A stretch of 64,000 bases of DNA from a bacterium (GTDB taxonomy: Bacteria; UBA8248; JACPRG01; G963555815). The stretch spans positions 480,001-544,000 of the forward strand of contig CBDHDG010000006.1 in the NCBI GenBank assembly GCA_965261595.1. Reading direction: 5' to 3'. A program made the position numbers and the translations under genes. Below the pieces are notes generated by a model. It searched no databases and was not told where the DNA came from. It saw only the letters and a list, made by a program, of their open reading frames with translations. Shown piece after piece: positions 257 to 17,011 of this stretch (position 1 is its first letter; each line of letters begins with the position of its first letter).

Positions 257-1366
257 TCAGGCCACACGCACGATGGCGGCCACGGTCCCCCCGCCGGGCG
301 GCCCCTGGTGCTCCGCGCCGCCGGAAACGTAGACCATCGAGTCTCCCACAATCGAGGAGATGACGGCGTTGACGGCGGCCCGCGCGTGGCGGGTGCTGTT
401 GATGTCGGAGTCGTCCAGCATGGTGTGCCGGCGGCCGCGGATTCGGCCGTCCGGGCTGGCCTCGCACTTGGCCAGGATGTTGACGACGCGCTCCCGTTGC
501 TCGGGCGACGGGCGCCAGTCGAAAGAGATTCCGGCGTTCTCCAGCGCGGCCTTCACCGCGTCGCCGTCGATGGCGTCCCGCATGACGCTGTGGCCGATGA
601 CGAGGTCCCCGCCCCACGAGGCGCTGTTGCCCAGCACCATGATCTCGTTGCACAGGAGCTCGATGCCCGAGGAGGTGGAGGCCACGCCCGATGAAAGGGA
701 CCAATCGCGGCCGATCACCTCGTCGCTCAACCGCCCTTCCGAGATTTCGCCCGTCACAAGGCCGACGCCCAGGGCCGAAGCGGCGCGCGAATACCCCATG
801 GATTTGTACGTGTTGTCCGAGCAAACGGTCTTTCCCCGCCGCGCGGCCTCCTCGGCCTGGTCCGTGCTGATCAAGGGGGTTTTGACCTGGACGAAATGGA
901 GGTCTCCGGCGCCCTCGATCCCCGCCTCCCCCATCAGGCGGCGCACCACGGCGGCCGTCTCGCGCACCTGCGCCATGCGGCCCATCTCCTCCGGGAGGAA
1001 ATCGCGCGTATGCCCGGAGGCCATGGCCAGGCGTTTTTCGCCGTTGCCCCCCCCCTCCCCCCCTTCCGGCGACTTGGCGAAAACGGTGAAATGCGGACTC
1101 ATGACCCCTTCGGTTCCGCCCGACATGATCAGGGCGATCCGCTCGCCGGTTTCTTCGCGCGAGATCCCGAGACACCGGCCGAAATAATCCGCCAGAACGA
1201 AATTGCTGAACCCGCGCGCGAAATCGTTGACGCAGCCGTTCCCCTCGGTCTTTCCCATGATGCAGACAACGTCCTCCGCCCCGCACCGGCCGCTGTCGAT
1301 CAGCTCGACGACTCCGCTGATGTCGTCCGGGGACGCCATCGGCACGCGAAAAACCTGTGCCTGCAT
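257..1366 (-). CDS. atzD: Cyanuric acid amidohydrolase (AtzD/barbiturase ring-opening amidohydrolase family)
   Basis: Motifs [55 protein letters not shown]. Confidence 0.9.
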
Positions 1367-2068: not shown

Positions 2069-2252
2069 AGAGGCTGAAATTTCCAGTCAGGGTTTACAGG
2101 AGGAGAAGTCACTCAGGCGCCGCCGACGCCTTGAGCCGGCCGATGATTCAGCCCATATCCCGTGATGGAAGCAAACGTTCTCATCGCCATGGAAGTCAGA
2201 CTTTTCGAATAAGGGTATCCGTCCGTGCCGACCTCTCGAAAAGGAGCGTCTC

Positions 2253-3659
2253 ATGTTCTTCGAACAAGTCGTACGCCTGGAAACCGGCTGCGTCTCCTAT
2301 GTATGCGGTTGTCCCGGGGGCGGTGAGTGCGCGGTGATCGACCCGCTCTGGGACCCGGCGCCGTACGCACGCATCGCCCAATCTCAAGGCGTATCCATCC
2401 GATACGTCATCGACACCCATTCCCACGCAGACCACGTCTCCGGAGCCCGGCGGCTCGCGCGGCTCACGGGCGCCGAGCTTATCCTTCACGAACTGGCCGA
2501 AATCGAGTATCCCGCACAGCGCGTCAAAGACGGCGACACATTCCGGATGGGATCCGTCCGGATGGAGATCCTCCATACGCCGGGCCACCGGCCGGAGCAC
2601 ATCATCGTCGCCATCACCGATCTCAGCCGCACGCCCGAGCCCTGGATGATCTGCACGGGCGATTTCGTTCTCGTCGGCGACATCGCTCGGCCCGATCTGG
2701 CCCAATCCGCCGCGGAGGGCGCGGGGGAGCTGTTCGACAAGGCCCTGCCCCGCGTCGCCGGGCTGCCCGACCACGTCGAGGTCTACCCGGGCCACGTGGG
2801 GGGCTCGACGTGAGGACGCTCGCTCAGCGGCAAGTTTGCCACCACACTCGGATTTGAGCGCCGCCACAACGCGGCCTTCCAAATGAAGAAACGCGACGAC
2901 TTTATCCGCCACATGTCCGAGGGACTGCCCGATCGGCCGGCGAATATCGCGCGGATCGTCGCCAACAACCAGGGAACCCTCCCCCTGACCCTGGAGGCGC
3001 CCGAGGCCCGGCCGGTTCCGCCGTCGGAGGCGTCGCGGTGGATGGAGGAGGACCCGGCGATCCGGATGATCGACATGCGCGAACCCGCCGGCTTCGGCGA
3101 GGCCCACGTCCCCGGGGCGGGAAACCTCCCGATCTCCAGCGCCGAGTTCGAGCAGCGGGCCGGGTGGGTCTTCGACCCCGACACCCCGTTCCTCCTTCTC
3201 GGCGAAAACGACCGCGACGCCCGGCGAGCATCGCACAAGTTGGCCTTTGTGGGACTGGACAGCAACGTTCGGGGATTCATCCCGGGCGGAATGCCGGCTT
3301 GGCGCGACGCGGGACTTCCCTCCGCGTCCCTTGACCAGATCTCCGTCGAGGGGCTTCATGAGCACCTGCGCGGTGACGCCGGGAACGGCTGGAATATCGT
3401 CGACGTGCGAGAGGACGAGGAGTGGACGGAAGGGCACATCGAGGGGGCCCACCACATGAATTTCAAGAAGATGGGCAAAGCGGATCTTGACCTGCCTTTC
3501 CCCCGCGGGGAGACCCTGGCCGTCATCTGCGGCGGGGGGATACGCAGCAGCACCGGCGCAAGCCTTCTTCAGGGACACGGCTACTCCGGCGTGATCAACG
3601 TCGTGGGCGGCATGAGCGCGTGGCGCGCCGCCGACTACGAGGTCGCCACGGAGAATTGA
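2253..3659 (+). CDS. Persulfide dioxygenase (MBL fold)-rhodanese-rhodanese fusion, CstB-like; predicted selenoprotein (TGA 2811-2813 = Sec187), 468 aa
   Basis: ORFs 2253-2813 and 2883-3659 are in the same frame with one stop between them. Reads PGHVGGST-U-GRSLS, matching the family motif PGHGAGSxCG. Also HSHADH, HTPGH, TGD, and C-terminal rhodanese ICGGGIRS. Confidence 0.88.
2814..2843 (+). promoter_or_regulatory. Putative bacterial SECIS element
   Basis: Hairpin GGCAA-GT-TTGCC (2829-2840) with apical GT 21-22 nt after TGA, similar in shape and spacing to the E. coli fdhF SECIS (GCAG-GT-CTGC). Confidence 0.65.
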
Positions 3660-3750: not shown

Positions 3751-5307
3751 GTGGTCACCTATGGATTCGTCATCGACAACCGGAAGTGCATCGGGTGCCA
3801 CGCCTGCACGGTCGCCTGCAAGGCCGAGAACGAGGTCCCCATCGGGGTGAACCGGACTTGGGTCAAGTACATCGAGAAGGGGGAGTTTCCCCTCACCCAG
3901 CGGAAGTTCTCCGTCATGCGGTGCAACCACTGCGCCGACGCCCCCTGTGTGGAAATCTGCCCGGTGACCGCCCTCTACACCCGGCCCGACGGAATCGTGG
4001 ACTTCGACAGCCAGCGGTGCATCGGCTGCAAGGCGTGCATGCAGGCGTGTCCCTACGACGCCATTTACATCGACCCGAACGATCAGACCGCCGCGAAATG
4101 CAATTATTGCTCCCACCGGACGGACGTCGGCCTCGCGCCCCCCTGTGTCACCGTCTGTCCCACGCACGCCATCATCTGCGGCGACCTGGAGGACCCGGGA
4201 AGCGAGATCGCGGGCCTCGTGAACCGCGAGGCGGTCCAGGTCCGAAAACCCGAGAAAGGGACGGACCCGAAGCTTTTCTACATCGAAGGGGACGCCGCTT
4301 CTCTCGACCCTACAGCGGCCTCTCCCGCGGACAGCTATATGTGGAGCCAGGGCGGGGGGGGCGGGGGGGAGACGCTCGAAACGCCCCGCGCCCTTTCCGG
4401 GGGGGGGGCGGCCGGTCCAGACCCCGCAAGCGGACTCGCCGGGCGTCTGGGGACCCTCGCCCGGCGCGTCTACGATGCGCCCCGTGAACAGATGGTCTGG
4501 GGGTGGAAGGTTTCTTTATACATCCTGACGAAGGCCGTCGCGGCCGGGGCGTTCGCCATCCCGCTGTTGGCCTTCGGCCCCGGCCGGCCGCCCGGCCCGA
4601 TGGGGTGGACGGGCGCCCTGCTCGGCCTCATCTTCCTCGGGCTGACCGGTCTCCTTCTCATCCAGGATCTTCGCCGGATGGACCGCTTTCTCTACATTTT
4701 CCTTCGCCCCCAGTGGAAGTCGTGGCTGGTCAAAGGGGGGTTTGTGTTGTTCGGGTTCGGCGGGGTGATCGGCCTGTGGCTCATCAGCGGAATCCTGGGA
4801 GGACGCGCCTTCCAGTCCGCTTTGACCTGGCCGGGGGTCGCCCTGTCTTTTCTGGCGGCCGTATACACGGCCTTCCTGTTCGCGCAGGCCAAAGGGCGGG
4901 ATTTCTGGCAGAGCCCGCTCCTATCGGTCCACATGCTCCTCCACGCGGTTTTGGCCGGGGGGGCGGCGTTGCTCCTGTTCAGCCCGTTCTTTCCGGCGGC
5001 GGCCGGCGACCGGTTGAAGGAGATCCTCCTGGGGGGGCTCGGGGTGAGCTTCCTGGCTTTCATGGGGGAGCTTTTCTTCCCCCACCCGACAAAAGACGCG
5101 CGCGCCGCGGCCCAAATGATCCTGCGCGGTCCCGGCGCGCTCCTGTTTTGGGGAGGCGTCGTGGCCCTGGGTCACGCCGCGGCCGCCGGCCTGCTGCTCT
5201 CGGGAATCGGCGGCCTCGAAGTCCTCAGCGCTCCCTTGATCCTGGGCGGGGTCTTCGCCGCCGCCCACCTCTGGGTGACCATTCCGCAGCGGATCCCGCT
5301 GAGTTGA
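3751..5307 (+). CDS. Fused 4Fe-4S subunit (NrfC/PsrB/DmsB-like) + NrfD/PsrC membrane anchor
   Basis: CIGCHACTVAC, CNHCADAPCVEICP, CIGCKACMQACP, KCNYC...PCVTVCP, then a Gly-rich linker and a multi-TM domain with DLRRMDRF and SWLVKGG motifs. Confidence 0.9.
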   Translation: MVTYGFVIDNRKCIGCHACTVACKAENEVPIGVNRTWVKYIEKGEFPLTQRKFSVMRCNHCADAPCVEICPVTALYTRPDGIVDFDSQRCIGCKACMQACPYDAIYIDPNDQTAAKCNYCSHRTDVGLAPPCVTVCPTHAIICGDLEDPGSEIAGLVNREAVQVRKPEKGTDPKLFYIEGDAASLDPTAASPADSYMWSQGGGGGGETLETPRALSGGGAAGPDPASGLAGRLGTLARRVYDAPREQMVWGWKVSLYILTKAVAAGAFAIPLLAFGPGRPPGPMGWTGALLGLIFLGLTGLLLIQDLRRMDRFLYIFLRPQWKSWLVKGGFVLFGFGGVIGLWLISGILGGRAFQSALTWPGVALSFLAAVYTAFLFAQAKGRDFWQSPLLSVHMLLHAVLAGGAALLLFSPFFPAAAGDRLKEILLGGLGVSFLAFMGELFFPHPTKDARAAAQMILRGPGALLFWGGVVALGHAAAAGLLLSGIGGLEVLSAPLILGGVFAAAHLWVTIPQRIPLS

Positions 5308-5317
5308 GGAGCGCCGA

Positions 5318-8206
5318 ATGAGCCACCAACCGAAACCCGGCTGGATCGAGCGAACGGCGGAGAGCCTCGGATGGATCCAACGGCTGGACCCGCCGCCCGC
5401 TCCCCGGGAAAAACGCCTGGCGCCGGAGGGGAAATTCGAGCAATATCCGCCCACCGACCGCTGGGGGGACTGGGCCGACCCGGTTCCGCCGGGCACCGAA
5501 GCGGACGCCTCGCGTGAGTGCGTCCTCATTCCCACCACCTGCTTCAACTGCGAAGCGGCCTGCGGCCTGCTCGCCTACGTGGACAAGGAGCGCCTGGAGG
5601 TCCGGAAGTTCGAGGGCAATCCCCTCCACCCGGGAAGCCGGGGGCGGAACTGCGCCAAGGGGCCGGCCACGATCAATCAGATTCGGGACCCCGATCGCAT
5701 CCTGCACCCCCTGAAGCGGGTGGGGCCGCGCGGCGGCGGCCGGTGGGAGCGGGTCGGGTGGGACGCGGTCCTGGACGACCTGGCCGCCCGCATCCGCGAA
5801 AGCCTCACCGGGGGAAAACCGGAGGAGGTGATGTATCACGTCGGCAGACCCGGCTACGAGGGATCCGTCGAGCGGGTCCTCAAGGCGTGGGGCATCGACG
5901 GCCACAACAGCCACACTAACGTCTGCTCGGCGGCCGCCCGTCTCGGTTATCACCTCTGGCAGGGGTCCGACCGTCCTTCCCCGGACCATCAACGGTCCCG
6001 CTTCATCCTCCTCATGAGCTCTCACCTGGAGGCGGGCCACTATTTCAACCCGCACGCCCAGCGCATCATCGAGGGCAAGCTGGCCGGCGCCAAACTGGCG
6101 GTCATCGACCCCCGGCTGTCGAATACGGCCGCCCGGGCGGATACCTGGCTCGCGCCTTATCCCGGGACCGAGGGGGCCCTTCTGCTGGCCATGGCCCATG
6201 TCCTCCTGGAAGAAGACCTCTTCGACCGGGCGTACGTGGAGACCTGGGTCAACTGGGAGGAGTATCTGAGGGAGGAGGCGGGCCTGTCCGGGGCCTCCTT
6301 TGATGTCTTTCTCTCAGAAATCAAAGAGGTCTACGCGGCGTACACGCCCGAATTCGCCGAAGCGGAGAGCGGCGTCCCGGCCGCGACGATCCGGAAGTTG
6401 GCCCGGGAGATCGGCCGGGCGGGGTCCGCCTTCGCGACCCACATCTGGCGGGGGGCCGCTTCGGGCCATCTGGGGGGGTGGCAGATCGCCCGCGCCCTTC
6501 ATTTCCTGAGCGTCCTGACCGGCAGCGTAGGGACCCCCGGGGGGACCGCGCCGGCGTCCTGGAACAAAACGAAACCGGCGCCCTTCGACACACCCCCCGC
6601 CGTCAAGTTCTGGAACGAGCTGATCTACCCGAGGGAATACCCCCTCTCGCATTATGAGATGAGCTTCCTCCTCCCCCACTTCCTGAAGGAGGACCGGGGA
6701 AAGCTCAGCGTATACTTCACCCGGGTCTACAACCCCATCTGGACCAACCCCGACGGCTTCACGTGGCTCGAAGTCCTCAAAGACGAGGAGAAGATCGGTC
6801 TGCACGCCGCAATGACGCCGACCTGGAACGAATCGGCCCTGTTCGCCGACTACGTCCTGCCCATGGGGCTCGCGGGCGAGCGTCACGACGTCCAGAGCCA
6901 GGAAACCCATTCGGGGATCTGGGTCTCGTTCCGCCAACCCGTCCTGCGGGTGGCGATGGAGCGGATGGGCAAACCCGTCCAGTGGACCTACGAGGCCAAC
7001 CCGGGGGAGGTGTGGGAAGAGGATGAGTTCTGGATCGAGCTCTCCTGGCGGATCGATCCGGATGGGGATCTCGGCATCCGGCGTCATTTCGAATCCCCCT
7101 ACCGGCCGGGGGAGAAGGTCACGGTCGAGGAATACTACCGCTGGATGTTCGAGAACAGCGTGCCGGGACTCCCGGAGAAGGTGGCCGAAGAGGGCCTCAC
7201 CCCCATCGAGTACATGAAAAAGTACGGGTCCTTCGAGATCCAAAAGGACATTTTCCAAAAGTACACCCGGCGGCTTCCGGCCGAAGAGATGGAGGGCGCG
7301 TCCATCGATCCCCGGACCCGCGTGGCTTCCAGAGACGGCCGGCCGATCGGCGTGGAGATCGCCGGGCGGGTCCTCGAGGGATTTCCGACCCCCTCGCGAA
7401 AACTGGAGTTCTATTCCTCCACGCTGAAGGATTGGGGCTGGCCCGAGCACGCCCTGCCCGGATACGTCTTCAGCCACATCCGTGAAGAAGACATGGGCCC
7501 GGGGGAGCTCATCCTCCTGCCGACCTTCCGCCTGCCCACGCTCATCCACACCCGGTCGGCCAACGCCAAGTGGCTGCTTGAGATCTCCCACCGGAACCCG
7601 GTCTGGATGCATCCGAAGGACTGCGGCCCGTTCGGGCTGAAGACGGGGGACCTGGTCAAGGTCCACACCGAGATCGGGTATTTCGTCAATCGCGTCTGGG
7701 TCACCGAGTCCATCCGGCCGGGGGTGATCGCCTGCTCCCACCACGCGGGCCGGTGGCGGCTGGACGAAAACGAGGGGGGAGGGGGGCGGATGGGCGCCGC
7801 CCTGGTCCGCCTGGAAGAACGGGAGAAGGGCCAATGGCTCCTCCGCCAGATTCACGGCATCAGGCCCTATGAAAGCGAGGACCCGGACACCGCCCGGATC
7901 TGGTGGCAGGACCCCGGCGTCCATCAGAACGCGGCCTTTCCCGTTCACCCGGACCCCGTGAGCGGGATGCACTGCTGGCATCAGAAGGTCCGCATCGAGA
8001 AGGCCGGCCCCGATGACCGGTACGGAGACGTCTTCGCGGACACCCGGAAGTCCTTTGAGATTTACCGCGAGTGGCTTCAGAAGACCCGTCCGGCGCCCGG
8101 CCCCGGCGGATTGAGACGTCCCCTCTGGCTGAATCGTCCCATTCCCTGCGAGCGGGACGCCTACCAATTGACCCCGGAACCGCCGGTGGACGGCCCCCAG
8201 GCGTGA
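5318..8206 (+). CDS. Molybdopterin (bis-PGD) oxidoreductase catalytic subunit, Psr/Phs/Sre/Soe-like, no Tat signal
   Basis: CFNCEAAC...NCAKG 4Fe-4S motif, SHTNVCS (Cys Mo ligand), ADYVLP, HTRS, C-terminal dinucleotide-binding domain; no RRxFLK at the N-terminus. Confidence 0.9.
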   Translation: MSHQPKPGWIERTAESLGWIQRLDPPPAPREKRLAPEGKFEQYPPTDRWGDWADPVPPGTEADASRECVLIPTTCFNCEAACGLLAYVDKERLEVRKFEGNPLHPGSRGRNCAKGPATINQIRDPDRILHPLKRVGPRGGGRWERVGWDAVLDDLAARIRESLTGGKPEEVMYHVGRPGYEGSVERVLKAWGIDGHNSHTNVCSAAARLGYHLWQGSDRPSPDHQRSRFILLMSSHLEAGHYFNPHAQRIIEGKLAGAKLAVIDPRLSNTAARADTWLAPYPGTEGALLLAMAHVLLEEDLFDRAYVETWVNWEEYLREEAGLSGASFDVFLSEIKEVYAAYTPEFAEAESGVPAATIRKLAREIGRAGSAFATHIWRGAASGHLGGWQIARALHFLSVLTGSVGTPGGTAPASWNKTKPAPFDTPPAVKFWNELIYPREYPLSHYEMSFLLPHFLKEDRGKLSVYFTRVYNPIWTNPDGFTWLEVLKDEEKIGLHAAMTPTWNESALFADYVLPMGLAGERHDVQSQETHSGIWVSFRQPVLRVAMERMGKPVQWTYEANPGEVWEEDEFWIELSWRIDPDGDLGIRRHFESPYRPGEKVTVEEYYRWMFENSVPGLPEKVAEEGLTPIEYMKKYGSFEIQKDIFQKYTRRLPAEEMEGASIDPRTRVASRDGRPIGVEIAGRVLEGFPTPSRKLEFYSSTLKDWGWPEHALPGYVFSHIREEDMGPGELILLPTFRLPTLIHTRSANAKWLLEISHRNPVWMHPKDCGPFGLKTGDLVKVHTEIGYFVNRVWVTESIRPGVIACSHHAGRWRLDENEGGGGRMGAALVRLEEREKGQWLLRQIHGIRPYESEDPDTARIWWQDPGVHQNAAFPVHPDPVSGMHCWHQKVRIEKAGPDDRYGDVFADTRKSFEIYREWLQKTRPAPGPGGLRRPLWLNRPIPCERDAYQLTPEPPVDGPQA

Positions 8207-8300: not shown

Positions 8301-9116
8301 ATGGAAATGCTCTGGATCTATCTCCTGATCGGTCTCATTACGGGCTTTTGCTCCGGTCTGATCGGCGTGGGCGGGGGGTTTATTCTGATCCCGCTCCTCC
8401 TGCTCGCCCGCGTCCCCATGGAAGTGGCCGTCAGCACCAGCCTGGTTTTCGTCCTGTTCAGCGCGGCCTCCGGGGCGTTGCGACACGGGTTTCAAGGGAC
8501 GGTGGACCGGCGTCTGGCCGGGTCGGTCGCCCCGGTTTCGGTCCTGACCGCCTTCGCCGGCTCCCTGTTGACCGTCCGGTTCCCCACCTCCGTGCTTCAG
8601 TCGCTCCTGGGCATCTGCGTCCTGGCCGGTCTTTATCTCCTGAATCGCAAGGCCCGCCTCCAGGTGGAGCTCACCGCGACGGACCTGCCGGGCCGCTGGA
8701 CCTACGACCGGACGGTCGAGTGGGGGGAGGAATCCATTCACTATCGCCTGGACTTGAAGAAGGCGGCGGGGGTCGGCGGCGTGGTGGGTTTTCTGGCCGG
8801 CCTGTTGGGCGTCGGCGGGGGGTTCTTGATAATCCCCGCCTTCGTCGGCCTGATGGGCATCCCCCTGCGCGTCGCCATCGGAACCTCCCTCCTCACCATC
8901 CTGGCGTCCGCCTTCGTGGGGACTGTGATGCACTGGGGACAAGGAAGCATGGACCTCACCGTGGTCTGGACGACGATCCTGACCGGGATGATCGGGGCGC
9001 AGCTCGGAGCCCTCTGCGTGCCGAAAATGCAAGAGGCGGGGATGAAAATCCTGATGAACGTCCTGCTGGGACTCTCGGCGGCTTATCTATTCGTTCTGGC
9101 GGGAATCGGACTTTGA
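8301..9116 (+). CDS. Sulfite exporter TauE/SafE family
   Basis: Two GxxSGLxGVGGG repeats, AIGTSL, multiple TM helices. Confidence 0.9.
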   Translation: MEMLWIYLLIGLITGFCSGLIGVGGGFILIPLLLLARVPMEVAVSTSLVFVLFSAASGALRHGFQGTVDRRLAGSVAPVSVLTAFAGSLLTVRFPTSVLQSLLGICVLAGLYLLNRKARLQVELTATDLPGRWTYDRTVEWGEESIHYRLDLKKAAGVGGVVGFLAGLLGVGGGFLIIPAFVGLMGIPLRVAIGTSLLTILASAFVGTVMHWGQGSMDLTVVWTTILTGMIGAQLGALCVPKMQEAGMKILMNVLLGLSAAYLFVLAGIGL

Positions 9117-9710: not shown

Positions 9711-10373
9711 TCAGGCGTGAACCGCGTCCGCCTTCTTTTCTCCGGCCTCCTGCTTCTCTTCAGCCAGGATTTCCCGGATAACGCCCTCCCGAACTTCCGG
9801 CTTCGTCCAGGTGCCCTTGTAGACGATGTTCCCCTCCCGGTCGGCGATGTACGCCATGTTGGACAGCCAACCGAAGGCCTCGTAAATCTTCTGGTCCATA
9901 CCGTCCACCAGAACCGTTACCTTCTTGATACCCTTTTGCTCGACCAGCTCCTTGGCGTAGCCCATTTTCTGCTCATACGAAGCGTGAGCTTCGTACTTGC
10001 CGAAGATCCCTTCATTCGCGTGCGGCGCGCGGACGTAGATGTTGAAAATCTCCAAATCGTCCCCGTACCTTTCGGCCAGATTTTCCATGTGCGGCACTTG
10101 CCGCCGGTACGGCGGTCACGTGATAGCGCCGAACTCGAAGAGCTGGAGCTTCTTTCCGATCAGGTCCACCGTATTGACGCGGCGGCCGTCCGTGGTCTCG
10201 AGCTGGACCGTCGGGATCTTCGAGCCGAGGGCCGCCGCGTCCTGGAATTTTGCGTACACGGCGCTCACCTTCTCGTTGAATTTTATCTTGACGAGCTTCC
10301 ACCAGTTCAGGAACAGGAACGAGTAGAACTTGCTCGGCGGGTTTCTGCCGAATTCACCTCTGGTCTGAATCAT
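9711..10373 (-). CDS. Iodothyronine deiodinase-like thioredoxin-fold protein; predicted selenoprotein (TGA 10118-10116), 220 aa
   Basis: ORFs 10116-10427 and 9711-10097 are in frame. Reads FEFGAIT-U-PPY (cf. deiodinase FGSxTUPxF), then IYVRAPH. GGAGG RBS lies 6 nt before ATG 10373. Confidence 0.88.
10088..10115 (-). promoter_or_regulatory. Putative bacterial SECIS element
   Basis: Hairpin GCGGC-AAGT-GCCGC (10104-10091) with GT 19-20 nt after TGA; shares GCGGCAAGT with the 2814 element. Confidence 0.65.
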
Positions 10374-10736
10374 CCAATCCTCCCTGTCGGCCTCGGGATT
10401 TGCATCTCCTCCGGACACTCGCCACACAAACGGCCGGCCTCAGCGAGAAACCCTGCGGCGATCACGCGAATCACCCCATTTTCCATTTTACCCCCTAAGA
10501 TTGTAAATAAGCGAGGGCGCGTAATATTCCACCCGATTGCTCCATTCGCCCGGCCGACCCGGTCCGGGAGACCCCGGCCAACCGTCCCGCCGGTTGAAGG
10601 AAAAAACCCTTTCTGTTAACATCCAGGCCGACCCTGAAGCGAAGCGCCATTCCCCACCGAGAACCTTATCCTTGACGGGTCGCCTCACAACAGGAGGGGA
10701 TGGGCAACGGCGCGCGGGAACGCGGAGATTGGAACG

Positions 10737-15825: not shown

Positions 15826-16023
15826 GTGTCTCGTAAAAGGTTTTACATTTCGTGACCCGAATGGTCCCGCTCCGGCCGGGCAAGGAGTCAACCGACCCAA
15901 ACGCCCGGCCTGCCGAAAGGTGTAAACCCGGTGTTTTCAAAGGGAATTATATAGATAAGTGGCATTTCCCCCTTAACATCCGTGCCACTTTCCTATAGGA
16001 TTATCTGTAGGAGGTCAAGGGAG

Positions 16024-17011
16024 ATGGCACACAAAGCACCTGGAAAAGCCCACCGCGTAGGACTCGGATTCGTCCAGTTCACCGAGATGTTCCCCGACAA
16101 CGAGACGGCGGAGAAGTGGATTGCCGAAGTGCGGTGGCCCGATGGCCCGCGTTGCCCAGTGTGCGACTCGGACAAGGTGCAGCACCCGACCGGTCACAAG
16201 ACCATGCCGTACCGGTGCCAAGTCAAGGGATGCCGGCAGAAGTTCAGTGTGAAGACCGGCACCGTCATGGAATCGTCGAAGGTCACCTATCGGGAGTGGG
16301 CCATTGCCGTGTACCTGTTCTGTACGAACCTCAAGGGCGTGTCGTCCATGAAGCTGCACCGGGACCTGAACCGGACTCAAAAGACGAGCTGGCATCTTGC
16401 CCACCGGCTCCGCGAGGCATGGGTGCATGACGAAGGGTTTGCGTTCACCGGACCGGTTGAAGTAGACGAGACCTACATGGGTGGCAAGGAACGCAACAAG
16501 CATGGCGTCAAGAAGATCAACAAGGGTCGTGGGCCTGTTGGCAAGAAGGCGGTTATCGGCATGAAGGACCGGGACACCAACTGGGTCACCGCCATGACGA
16601 TAGACAGGACGGACGCGCCCACGTTGCAGGGTTTCGTGCTTGGGGCAGGTGGCACCCGACGCGAAGGTGTACACCGATGACCACGGCGGGTATTACGGCC
16701 TGCCGAACCACGAGACGGTCAAGCACTCCGTGGGCGAGTACGTGGACGGACAGGCCCACACGAACGGTATCGAGTCCTTTTGGTCCATGCTCAAGAGGGG
16801 CTACCACGGGGTGTACCACCGCATGAGTCCCGAGCACCTGGACAGGTACGTGACGGAGTTCTCGGGACGCCACAATCTGCGGAATGAGGATACGGTTGCC
16901 CAGATGGTCGCCGTGTTCCGGGGCACGGTCGGACGGCGGTTGAAGTACGATGACCTGATTGCCCCCAAGCTCGCTCCGGTGCTGACCGCGCCGGGGAGCG
17001 ACGTGTTCTAG
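16024..17011 (+). pseudogene. IS1595 transposase, +1 frameshift near 16642-16645
   Basis: Zn ribbon CPVC/C..GC, VEVDETY in one frame; VYTD, HTNGIESFWS, YVTEF in the next. An extra G in GGGG separates them (may be a sequencing error). Confidence 0.88.

Follow-up and report, generated by a model that had tools for sequence, protein, structure and literature searches.

The closest described systems to the gene analysed here are CstB from Staphylococcus aureus (PDB code: 3r2u) and the Alicyclobacillus protein of PDB code 3tp9. According to the available text of a preprint (PMC12934615), C201 of CstB lies 3.4 Å from the Fe(II), is persulfidated and is oxidised to an S-sulfonate, and the loop that carries it is mobile, so that the C201 S-sulfonate is shuttled about 27 Å to C408 with formation of thiosulfate. 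The same text describes the C201-G202 loop as a glutathione mimic, calls F148 stacked on L205 invariant in CstB-like proteins and reports the Q13T variant as inactive. Position 13 therefore matters, and the chemistry of an enzyme that differs there may differ from that of CstB.

The window, that is, the whole 64,000-nucleotide stretch of bacterial DNA that was analysed, holds a related gene that the ORF finder returned as two ORFs, 2253-2813 and 2883-3659. An earlier note on this DNA had proposed that one in-frame TGA unites an ORF for a metallo-β-lactamase (MBL) domain with a rhodanese ORF, and translation agrees: 186 amino acids are followed by the TGA as codon 187 and then by 281 open codons, giving a single gene of 468 codons whose own terminal stop is a TGA at 3657-3659 (Table 1). 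No stop interrupts the 23 codons from the internal TGA to the next ATG (2883), as the note had stated; they read GRSLSGKFATTLGFERRHNAAFQ. No ribosome-binding site is present upstream of ATG 2883, in contrast to ATG 2253 with its AAGGAG. The GC content at third codon positions is 0.82 in the N-half, 0.74 in the 23 intervening codons and 0.85 in the C-half. A promoter scan did not find a sigma-70 site. Also, short contigs of the gene occur in two metatranscriptome runs of seawater type; being contigs, they cannot show transcription or its level. The note had advised a look at other reads of the codon, and contigs from two other studies (X5 and X11, the latter possibly the source of this DNA) cover it with no alternative letter; because these contigs agree and the codon is kept in genes with as little as about 41% identity, a sequencing error is rejected.

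Table 1. Features of the predicted selenocysteine gene and its neighbours (positions in the window).
Feature	Position	Strand	Basis and remarks
Ribosome-binding site AAGGAG	2241..2246	+	Sequence; 6 nt 5' of ATG 2253
Single 468-codon gene, MBL/persulfide dioxygenase, pseudo-rhodanese and rhodanese	2253..3659	+	Pfam, PDB matches, AlphaFold, Foldseek
Cys13, at the CstB Q13 position, second sphere of the iron	2289..2291	+	Alignment to 3r2u
Predicted Fe(II) facial triad H56 (2418), H112 (2586), D137 (2661)	2418..2663	+	CstB H56/H119/D145 in the available text of PMC12934615
In-frame TGA, predicted Sec187, equivalent of CstB C201, loop PGHVGGST-U-GR	2811..2813	+	Alignment, homologs
SECIS-type hairpin	2827..2842	+	Synonymous-site invariance, pair table, consensus fold, bSECIS model
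Rhodanese active site R386 (3408), C426 (3528), R431 (3543)	3408..3545	+	CstB R370, C408, R413
4Fe-4S and NrfD fusion (electron transfer, membrane anchor)	3751..5307	+	Pfam Fer4_11 and NrfD; 91 nt downstream
Uncharacterised Mo/W-bisPGD oxidoreductase	5318..8206	+	Cys at ligand position, HNSHTNVC motif
TauE/SafE-family exporter	8301..9116	+	Pfam PF01925, E 6e-49

Over its entire length the read-through protein matches 3tp9 (E 2.8e-74) as well as 3r2u (E 3.5e-61), and Pfam assigns PF00753 and PF00581 to it. Its domains are an MBL domain (residues ~1-240), a Cys-less pseudo-rhodanese (~255-355) and a catalytic rhodanese (~360-465). The MBL and rhodanese parts named in the earlier note stand, and its single rhodanese gives way to two rhodanese folds, the middle one Cys-less and the last catalytic, as in CstB. 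In the alignments to 3tp9 and 3r2u, the TGA column coincides with the Cys of GSxCG; given the offset of 24 residues in chain 3r2u_A, this Cys is C201, the residue at which the note had placed the TGA, and with it H119, D145, F148 and R154 also take the numbers that they have in the available text of the CstB preprint (PMC12934615). The AlphaFold model has a pLDDT of 93.8, with the catalytic-loop block as its lowest 10-residue block (pLDDT 69), in keeping with the mobility of the CstB loop. Foldseek gives a TM of 0.89 to 3tp9.

The note had also suggested a search for homologs with Cys and with TGA at this column, and both kinds exist. In the phylum set of 51 genomes, searched with query residues 1-256 (match at E<=1e-30), seven genomes match; six have one TGA at the column and the seventh (G041, 42% identical) has TGC. 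The nearest relative, a copy in the same genus (L030, G001:C1:99271-100705), keeps the TGA and the hairpin described below, and lies in four pieces with three frame breaks that may be decay or assembly error; G038 holds only a remnant of the gene. The refuting conditions that the note had set (TGC or TGT in reads, a genome without Sec machinery, or no TGA in other homologs together with pseudogene decay of the halves) were all examined, and none of them refutes its reading. A TGA-targeted pattern scan of metagenomes, from which a Sec:Cys ratio is not derivable, gave at least 120 loci, two of which were left out; 76 of the 118 examined are homologs, each open past the TGA as far as the DNA reaches. 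Taken together with the genome loci, they give 41 distinct full-length genes, with pairwise identities of 41-99.8% (median 57%), which have exactly one in-frame TGA each, always at column 187. One Sec-form gene (L108) is ~200 codons longer than the others, with 480 codons after the TGA.

Protein records agree with this distribution. When the N-half (186 aa) was searched against them, 119 of the best 120 of 1151 matches stop exactly before the Cys column (118 ending in ..GST and one in ..DST), and the remaining one continues with Cys. With the full-length protein as query, 119 of the best 120 of 4073 matches have Cys at the column and one is a split C-half. As a control, none of the 120 best short matches to a Cys-clade query ends at the Cys column. 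Of 150 representatives among the matches listed, three stop at this column, and each of them carries the ..GST motif seen in the Sec clade; among the best matches listed no independent gain of Sec was seen elsewhere in the superfamily. The few named sources of N-half matches include Gemmatimonadota, Acidobacteriota and Ca. Krumholzibacteriia; moreover, the TGA is present in a 'Nitrospinae' MAG, and in a Tectomicrobia MAG the contig stops short of the codon. Judged from these sequences, the predicted Sec form is common in uncultured bacteria.

Comparison of the active site with that of CstB reveals both conserved and altered positions. H56, H58, H112, D137 and R146 (R154 in CstB) are invariant in the 41 Sec genes, as are the loop residues G184, U187 and G188 (G198 and C201-G202 in CstB, with Sec for Cys) and the rhodanese residues C426 and R386, R431 being present in 40 of the 41. 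Besides the predicted Fe triad, the window protein has both H58 and H61. The C-terminal rhodanese Cys, which the note had described as intact, is C426 within ICGGGIRS (3528-3530). Codon 20, at the position of CstB C20, is TGT. Cys13 is invariant in Sec forms (41/41) and in Cys forms (119/119). The F148 position (140) holds L in 29 and M in 12 of the 41 genes, F not being kept, and the L205 position (191) holds T in 29, S in 6, L in 5 and K in 1, so that it is mostly not kept. In view of the departures at Q13, F148 and L205, both the product and the Se-S chemistry are predictions made by analogy; with this reservation, Se-S chemistry at an O2-using iron, as the earlier note had it, is supported. 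By architecture the protein is a type III PDO, a class defined in the available text of PMC5702731, and would work like CstB, without being a strict CstB, since neither the F148/L205 pair nor Q13 is kept.

Downstream of the TGA, the sequences compared contain a SECIS-type element that purifying selection maintains. It lies 14-29 nt 3' of the UGA, with a core stem of 2829-2832 with 2837-2840 and a loop AGUU at 2833-2836, 19 nt after the UGA and with G in second place; the family consensus of the loop is AG[G/U]U at the same distance. Third codon positions +18, +21, +24 and +27 are invariant in 73/73 distinct downstream sequences, and +15 is T in 70. Across the 41 genes, two of 126 fourfold-degenerate columns are invariant, at codons 193 and 196, both in the hairpin stem; the next lowest entropy among the other fourfold columns is 0.84 bits and the median 1.55 bits. 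A 6-bp stem has 99.1% of its cells paired, versus 28-78% when slid, and one stem pair alternates between G-C (39) and G-U (32). In the window copy, C at 2828 breaks one outer pair, which places this copy among the three of the 73 sequences in which an outer pair is broken.

The bSECIS model, as given in the available text of PMC13188914, comprises a stem of 4-16 bp, a loop of 3-9 nt with G in its first two places, a distance of 16-37 nt from the UGA and a minimum free energy (MFE) of <= -7.5. The element agrees with this model: the stem has 4-6 bp, and the +1..+45 fold reaches -7.9 in the window and <= -7.5 in 81/81 sequences. Taken alone, the 16-nt hairpin of the window is weak at -5.2 kcal/mol, with z of -0.1 to -1.3 versus shuffles, values that are uninformative. 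Rfam gave no match to the hairpin. No compensatory double change occurs in any hairpin pair of the pair table and consensus fold, and covariation was rejected as support for the stem, as the majority of pairs show no variation at all and the shuffle control gave a degenerate result (500/500). All Sec forms have V or F at the hairpin-loop codon, and a different residue stands there in 10 of the 11 Cys forms nested among them, as expected if the RNA and not the protein constrains this codon. A natural G-to-T variant at 2838 (run X15; locus L100, 98.5% identical) breaks a C-G stem pair and is possibly a weak-SECIS allele.

The selenocysteine machinery that the note had advised looking for (selA, selB, selC and selD) is present in full in the source genome, whose assembly is 96.7% complete with 5.6% contamination. 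A profile search places selA and selB side by side on contig C6, both above curated cut-offs, and selD, with one in-frame TGA of its own, on C5 above its curated cut-off. ARAGORN finds the tRNA-Sec (selC) at C6:845075, with 72 bits for Rfam RF01852 versus a gathering score of 47, and this is the sole tRNA with a TCA anticodon found in the genome. selB occurs in 48 of the 51 phylum genomes, including all six with a TGA-form gene, and co-occurrence within the phylum is therefore expected and adds little weight. In the 41 family genes the Trp codon is TGG (312 times), and the terminal stops are 17 TGA, 15 TAG and 7 TAA, two being cut; a reassignment of the code is therefore excluded. Taken from the sequence data, the mid-gene TGA almost certainly encodes selenocysteine within one gene that is read through, and we have very little doubt that readthrough at codon 187 is real.

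Regarding its history, a quick tree covered all 41 Sec forms, the 11 Cys forms that carry the ST motif and a set of 36 out of the 108 other Cys forms. All Sec forms fall in one clade (support 100), in which the 11 Cys proteins, known as proteins only, are nested at three places, and an AU test on a 38-row subset rejects a Sec-only clade (p 0.010). Because the hairpin is shared, the comparison favours one predicted gain of Sec followed by reversions to Cys, and several gains of Sec are the alternative left beside it.

Among the genes around this family, a sulfur-gene context is seen in part of the loci. The closest solved relative of the Mo enzyme is PsrA (PDB code: 2vpw, E 1e-38); it scores far below every NCBIfam cut-off, and its first 70 residues lack a twin-arginine motif. 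Members of the Mo enzyme family (53-95% identical) adjoin the Sec gene in 11 of the 42 loci whose flank reaches 1 kb or more on one side; in a further 39 loci the flank is shorter. These 11 loci belong to three tree groups with differing gene orders and often include a YeeE pair (in 6) or a chaperone of TorD type (in 6). The other 31 show no Mo enzyme in their flanks, and most loci have unrelated neighbours; the Mo enzyme is found in 42 of the 51 phylum genomes, mostly without a Sec-PDO gene (the predicted selenoprotein gene is so called hereafter). Therefore, the association is real but loose. Other neighbours, among 30 loci scanned, are a SulP-rhodanese (L090), a type III sulfide:quinone oxidoreductase (SQR)-like gene (L073), sulfurtransferases (L031, L032) and CBS/CGL-like genes (L057). 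The source genome has a heme-copper oxidase subunit I. A Sec ligand in the Mo enzyme was considered and rejected: seven matches showed one TGA, and the six examined all have TGC at the ligand column, the TGA being the terminal stop in three and the alignment ending before any stop in the other three.

Several further observations concern other genes of this genome. A second split gene at 9711-10427 on the minus strand is deiodinase-like, with an in-frame TGA at 10121-10119 in GAIT-U-PP and, after it, a GGCAAG..GCC hairpin that resembles that of Sec-PDO; it falls in a selenoprotein family that is already known (NF038285, with E 6e-19 and a score below cut-off). A cyanuric acid amidohydrolase AtzD (257-1366, minus strand; NF052395 above cut-off) lies two genes upstream of the Sec-PDO gene, and an ORF at 15982-16680 on the plus strand resembles an IS1595-type transposase. 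Elsewhere in this genome, a formate dehydrogenase alpha subunit (G000:C6:1626902-1628953) has no in-frame TGA despite the Sec-rich genome. A genome-wide TGA scan gave many candidates at CxxU/UxxC-like sites, by eye AhpD-, Prx-, Trx- and DsbA-like, as well as three genes that resemble one another and share a GxGxU-LLT/TLT motif (C5:439283, C6:1062511 and C7:962913); it missed the Sec-PDO gene, selD and the deiodinase-like gene, and is therefore incomplete and yields no count.

Based on these data, SelB and tRNA-Sec would read through the UGA, guided by the hairpin, to give one 468-aa selenoprotein. By analogy with CstB, Sec187 at the tip of a mobile loop beside the Fe(II) would take sulfane sulfur from small persulfides or polysulfides of any kind (Se-S-), Fe and O2 would oxidise the Sec-bound sulfur, and the loop would pass it to the persulfidated rhodanese Cys426, with release of thiosulfate or sulfite. 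The substitution of Sec for the sulfur-carrying Cys proposed in the earlier note stands, with a change of cargo, given that the CstB residue bears an S-sulfonate made at the iron and not plain sulfur (available text of PMC12934615). In line with general Sec chemistry, selenium would probably load and release faster and resist irreversible over-oxidation beside the O2-activating iron; Cys13 may serve as a resolving partner, and the product would probably leave the cell (through TauE or YeeE) or serve the neighbouring Mo enzyme. A CstB-like dioxygenase that oxidises sulfane sulfur with Sec as covalent carrier is, on this analogy, the probable function. The fuller scheme, to which we give slightly less than an even chance, has Sec as a covalent substrate carrier whose Se-S-sulfonate is made at the iron, swung to the rhodanese and tuned by Cys13, coupled in several lineages to a probably cytoplasm-facing Mo-bisPGD/NrfD complex that would lead from sulfane sulfur to quinone.

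Other explanations have to be weighed against a CstB-like selenoprotein. The separate records of the two halves in databases (P0002) and the broken copies in G001 and G038 would suit a true stop, in a pseudogene or in a gene split into two proteins. Nonetheless, the TGA keeps its column in 41 genes down to 41% identity, neither TAA nor TAG occurs there in the five relatives that a protein search found, conservation extends to the 23 codons in between and ATG 2883 has no ribosome-binding site; moreover, the break would fall inside the catalytic loop of the MBL domain and synonymous constraint lies just 3' of it, which makes a stop exceedingly improbable. Least probable of all is a TGA reassigned to Trp, Gly or Cys, or misread in sequencing, for which no evidence was found: TGA terminates the gene itself and 17 of 41 family genes, TGG encodes Trp, the one tRNA found with a TCA anticodon is tRNA-Sec, and the contigs of other studies show TGA. 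A two-metal hydrolase like glyoxalase II instead of a dioxygenase is very improbable too. The full dinuclear motif (H56, H58, D60, H61, H112, D137 and H181) is present and CstB has Phe at H61, but the persulfide dioxygenase of PDB code 8zbd also has His there, the glyoxalase II model GloB (TIGR03413) scores 65.7 bits versus a cut-off of 200.8, the best folds are 3tp9 and CstB, then PDOs, before glyoxalases II, and the rhodanese fusion and sulfur neighbours suit sulfur oxidation.

The remaining rival accepts Sec and gives it a chemistry unlike that of CstB, either a Sec187-Cys13 selenenyl-sulfide redox pair, or hydrolysis of the oxidised sulfur on Se to free sulfite that would go to the neighbouring Mo enzyme, or selenium species in place of persulfides as substrates. 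The invariant Cys13 where CstB has Q13, the loss of F148/L205, and the TauE and the Cys-ligand Mo enzyme without a Tat motif next door all speak for it, as does ScPDO of S. coelicolor, a type III fusion described as a sulfite producer in the available text of PMC7533328. On the other hand, the rhodanese arginines that capture the S-sulfonate in CstB are kept, and Cys13 is equally invariant in Cys forms and is therefore not a Sec-specific partner. We consider this rival unlikely, and the CstB-like carrier function remains the preferred reading.

The note's remark that this is not known as a characterised selenoprotein family agrees with the sources at hand: no NCBIfam 20 model is above cut-off for Sec-PDO, and none of the 119 prokaryotic selenoprotein families in Table 1 of a May 2026 review (PMC13188914) has an MBL fold. 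'Lactamase', 'dioxygenase' and 'persulfide' are absent from the available text of that review, of the BSepDB paper (PMC13326102) and of the deep-Sep paper (PMC12013277). No paper reporting the family was found in the literature, judged from listings and abstracts, the nearest being that on SelTryp (PMC1557815), and Deng et al. 2026 could include it. Their work reportedly comprises unvalidated selenoprotein candidates from 44,000 MAGs. Set against the catalogues that can be searched, the predicted protein is a new selenoprotein family on a known enzyme type, widespread and stored in databases as 186-aa fragments. The Sec would occupy the very residue that is pivotal to the swinging-loop mechanism recently proposed for CstB; Sec and Cys versions with about 50% identity coexist in nature, and therefore both this mechanism and the gain of Sec over Cys are directly testable. 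The question of Sec versus Cys is one of speed or resistance to over-oxidation, here next to an O2-activating iron, and the uncharacterised Mo enzyme would be a likely partner where uncultured bacteria of marine and other environments oxidise sulfur.

Finally, Sec-PDO can be compared with other selenoproteins and with CstB itself. Rhodanese-like selenoproteins of forms 1-5 (Table 1 of PMC13188914, in its available text; NF041203, NF045694) likewise use Sec in a sulfur-transfer setting, but theirs is in or at the rhodanese, whereas Sec-PDO keeps Cys in the rhodanese and has its predicted Sec in the MBL dioxygenase loop; NF041203 gives it 23 bits versus a cut-off of 115. SelTryp of Kinetoplastida, compared by its description in the available text of PMC1557815, is likewise a selenoprotein with a predicted MBL fold and two rhodanese domains; however, this eukaryotic protein has Sec in a C-terminal CxxU tail and not in the metal-site loop. 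A type III SQR selenoprotein subtype (NF049943) also places Sec in sulfide and sulfane-sulfur metabolism, and one Sec-PDO gene (L073) adjoins an SQR-like gene, but the SQR is a flavoprotein of another fold acting at another step of the pathway. In the source genome an SQR was not found with a single query, no cstR/cstA/sqr operon was seen and no CsoR-type gene occurs among the neighbours scanned; the cst operon of CstB comprises cstR, cstA, sqr and tauE; here TauE is present, and the Mo-bisPGD/NrfD enzyme is the recurrent neighbour. With CstB and 3tp9, at ~30-34% identity in structure alignments, Sec-PDO shares the three-domain architecture, and with CstB also the Fe triad, H58, R154, the loop G198 and x201-G202, C408/R370/R413 and a nearby TauE, whereas it differs by a predicted Sec at C201, Cys at Q13 and, in the window protein, His at F61.
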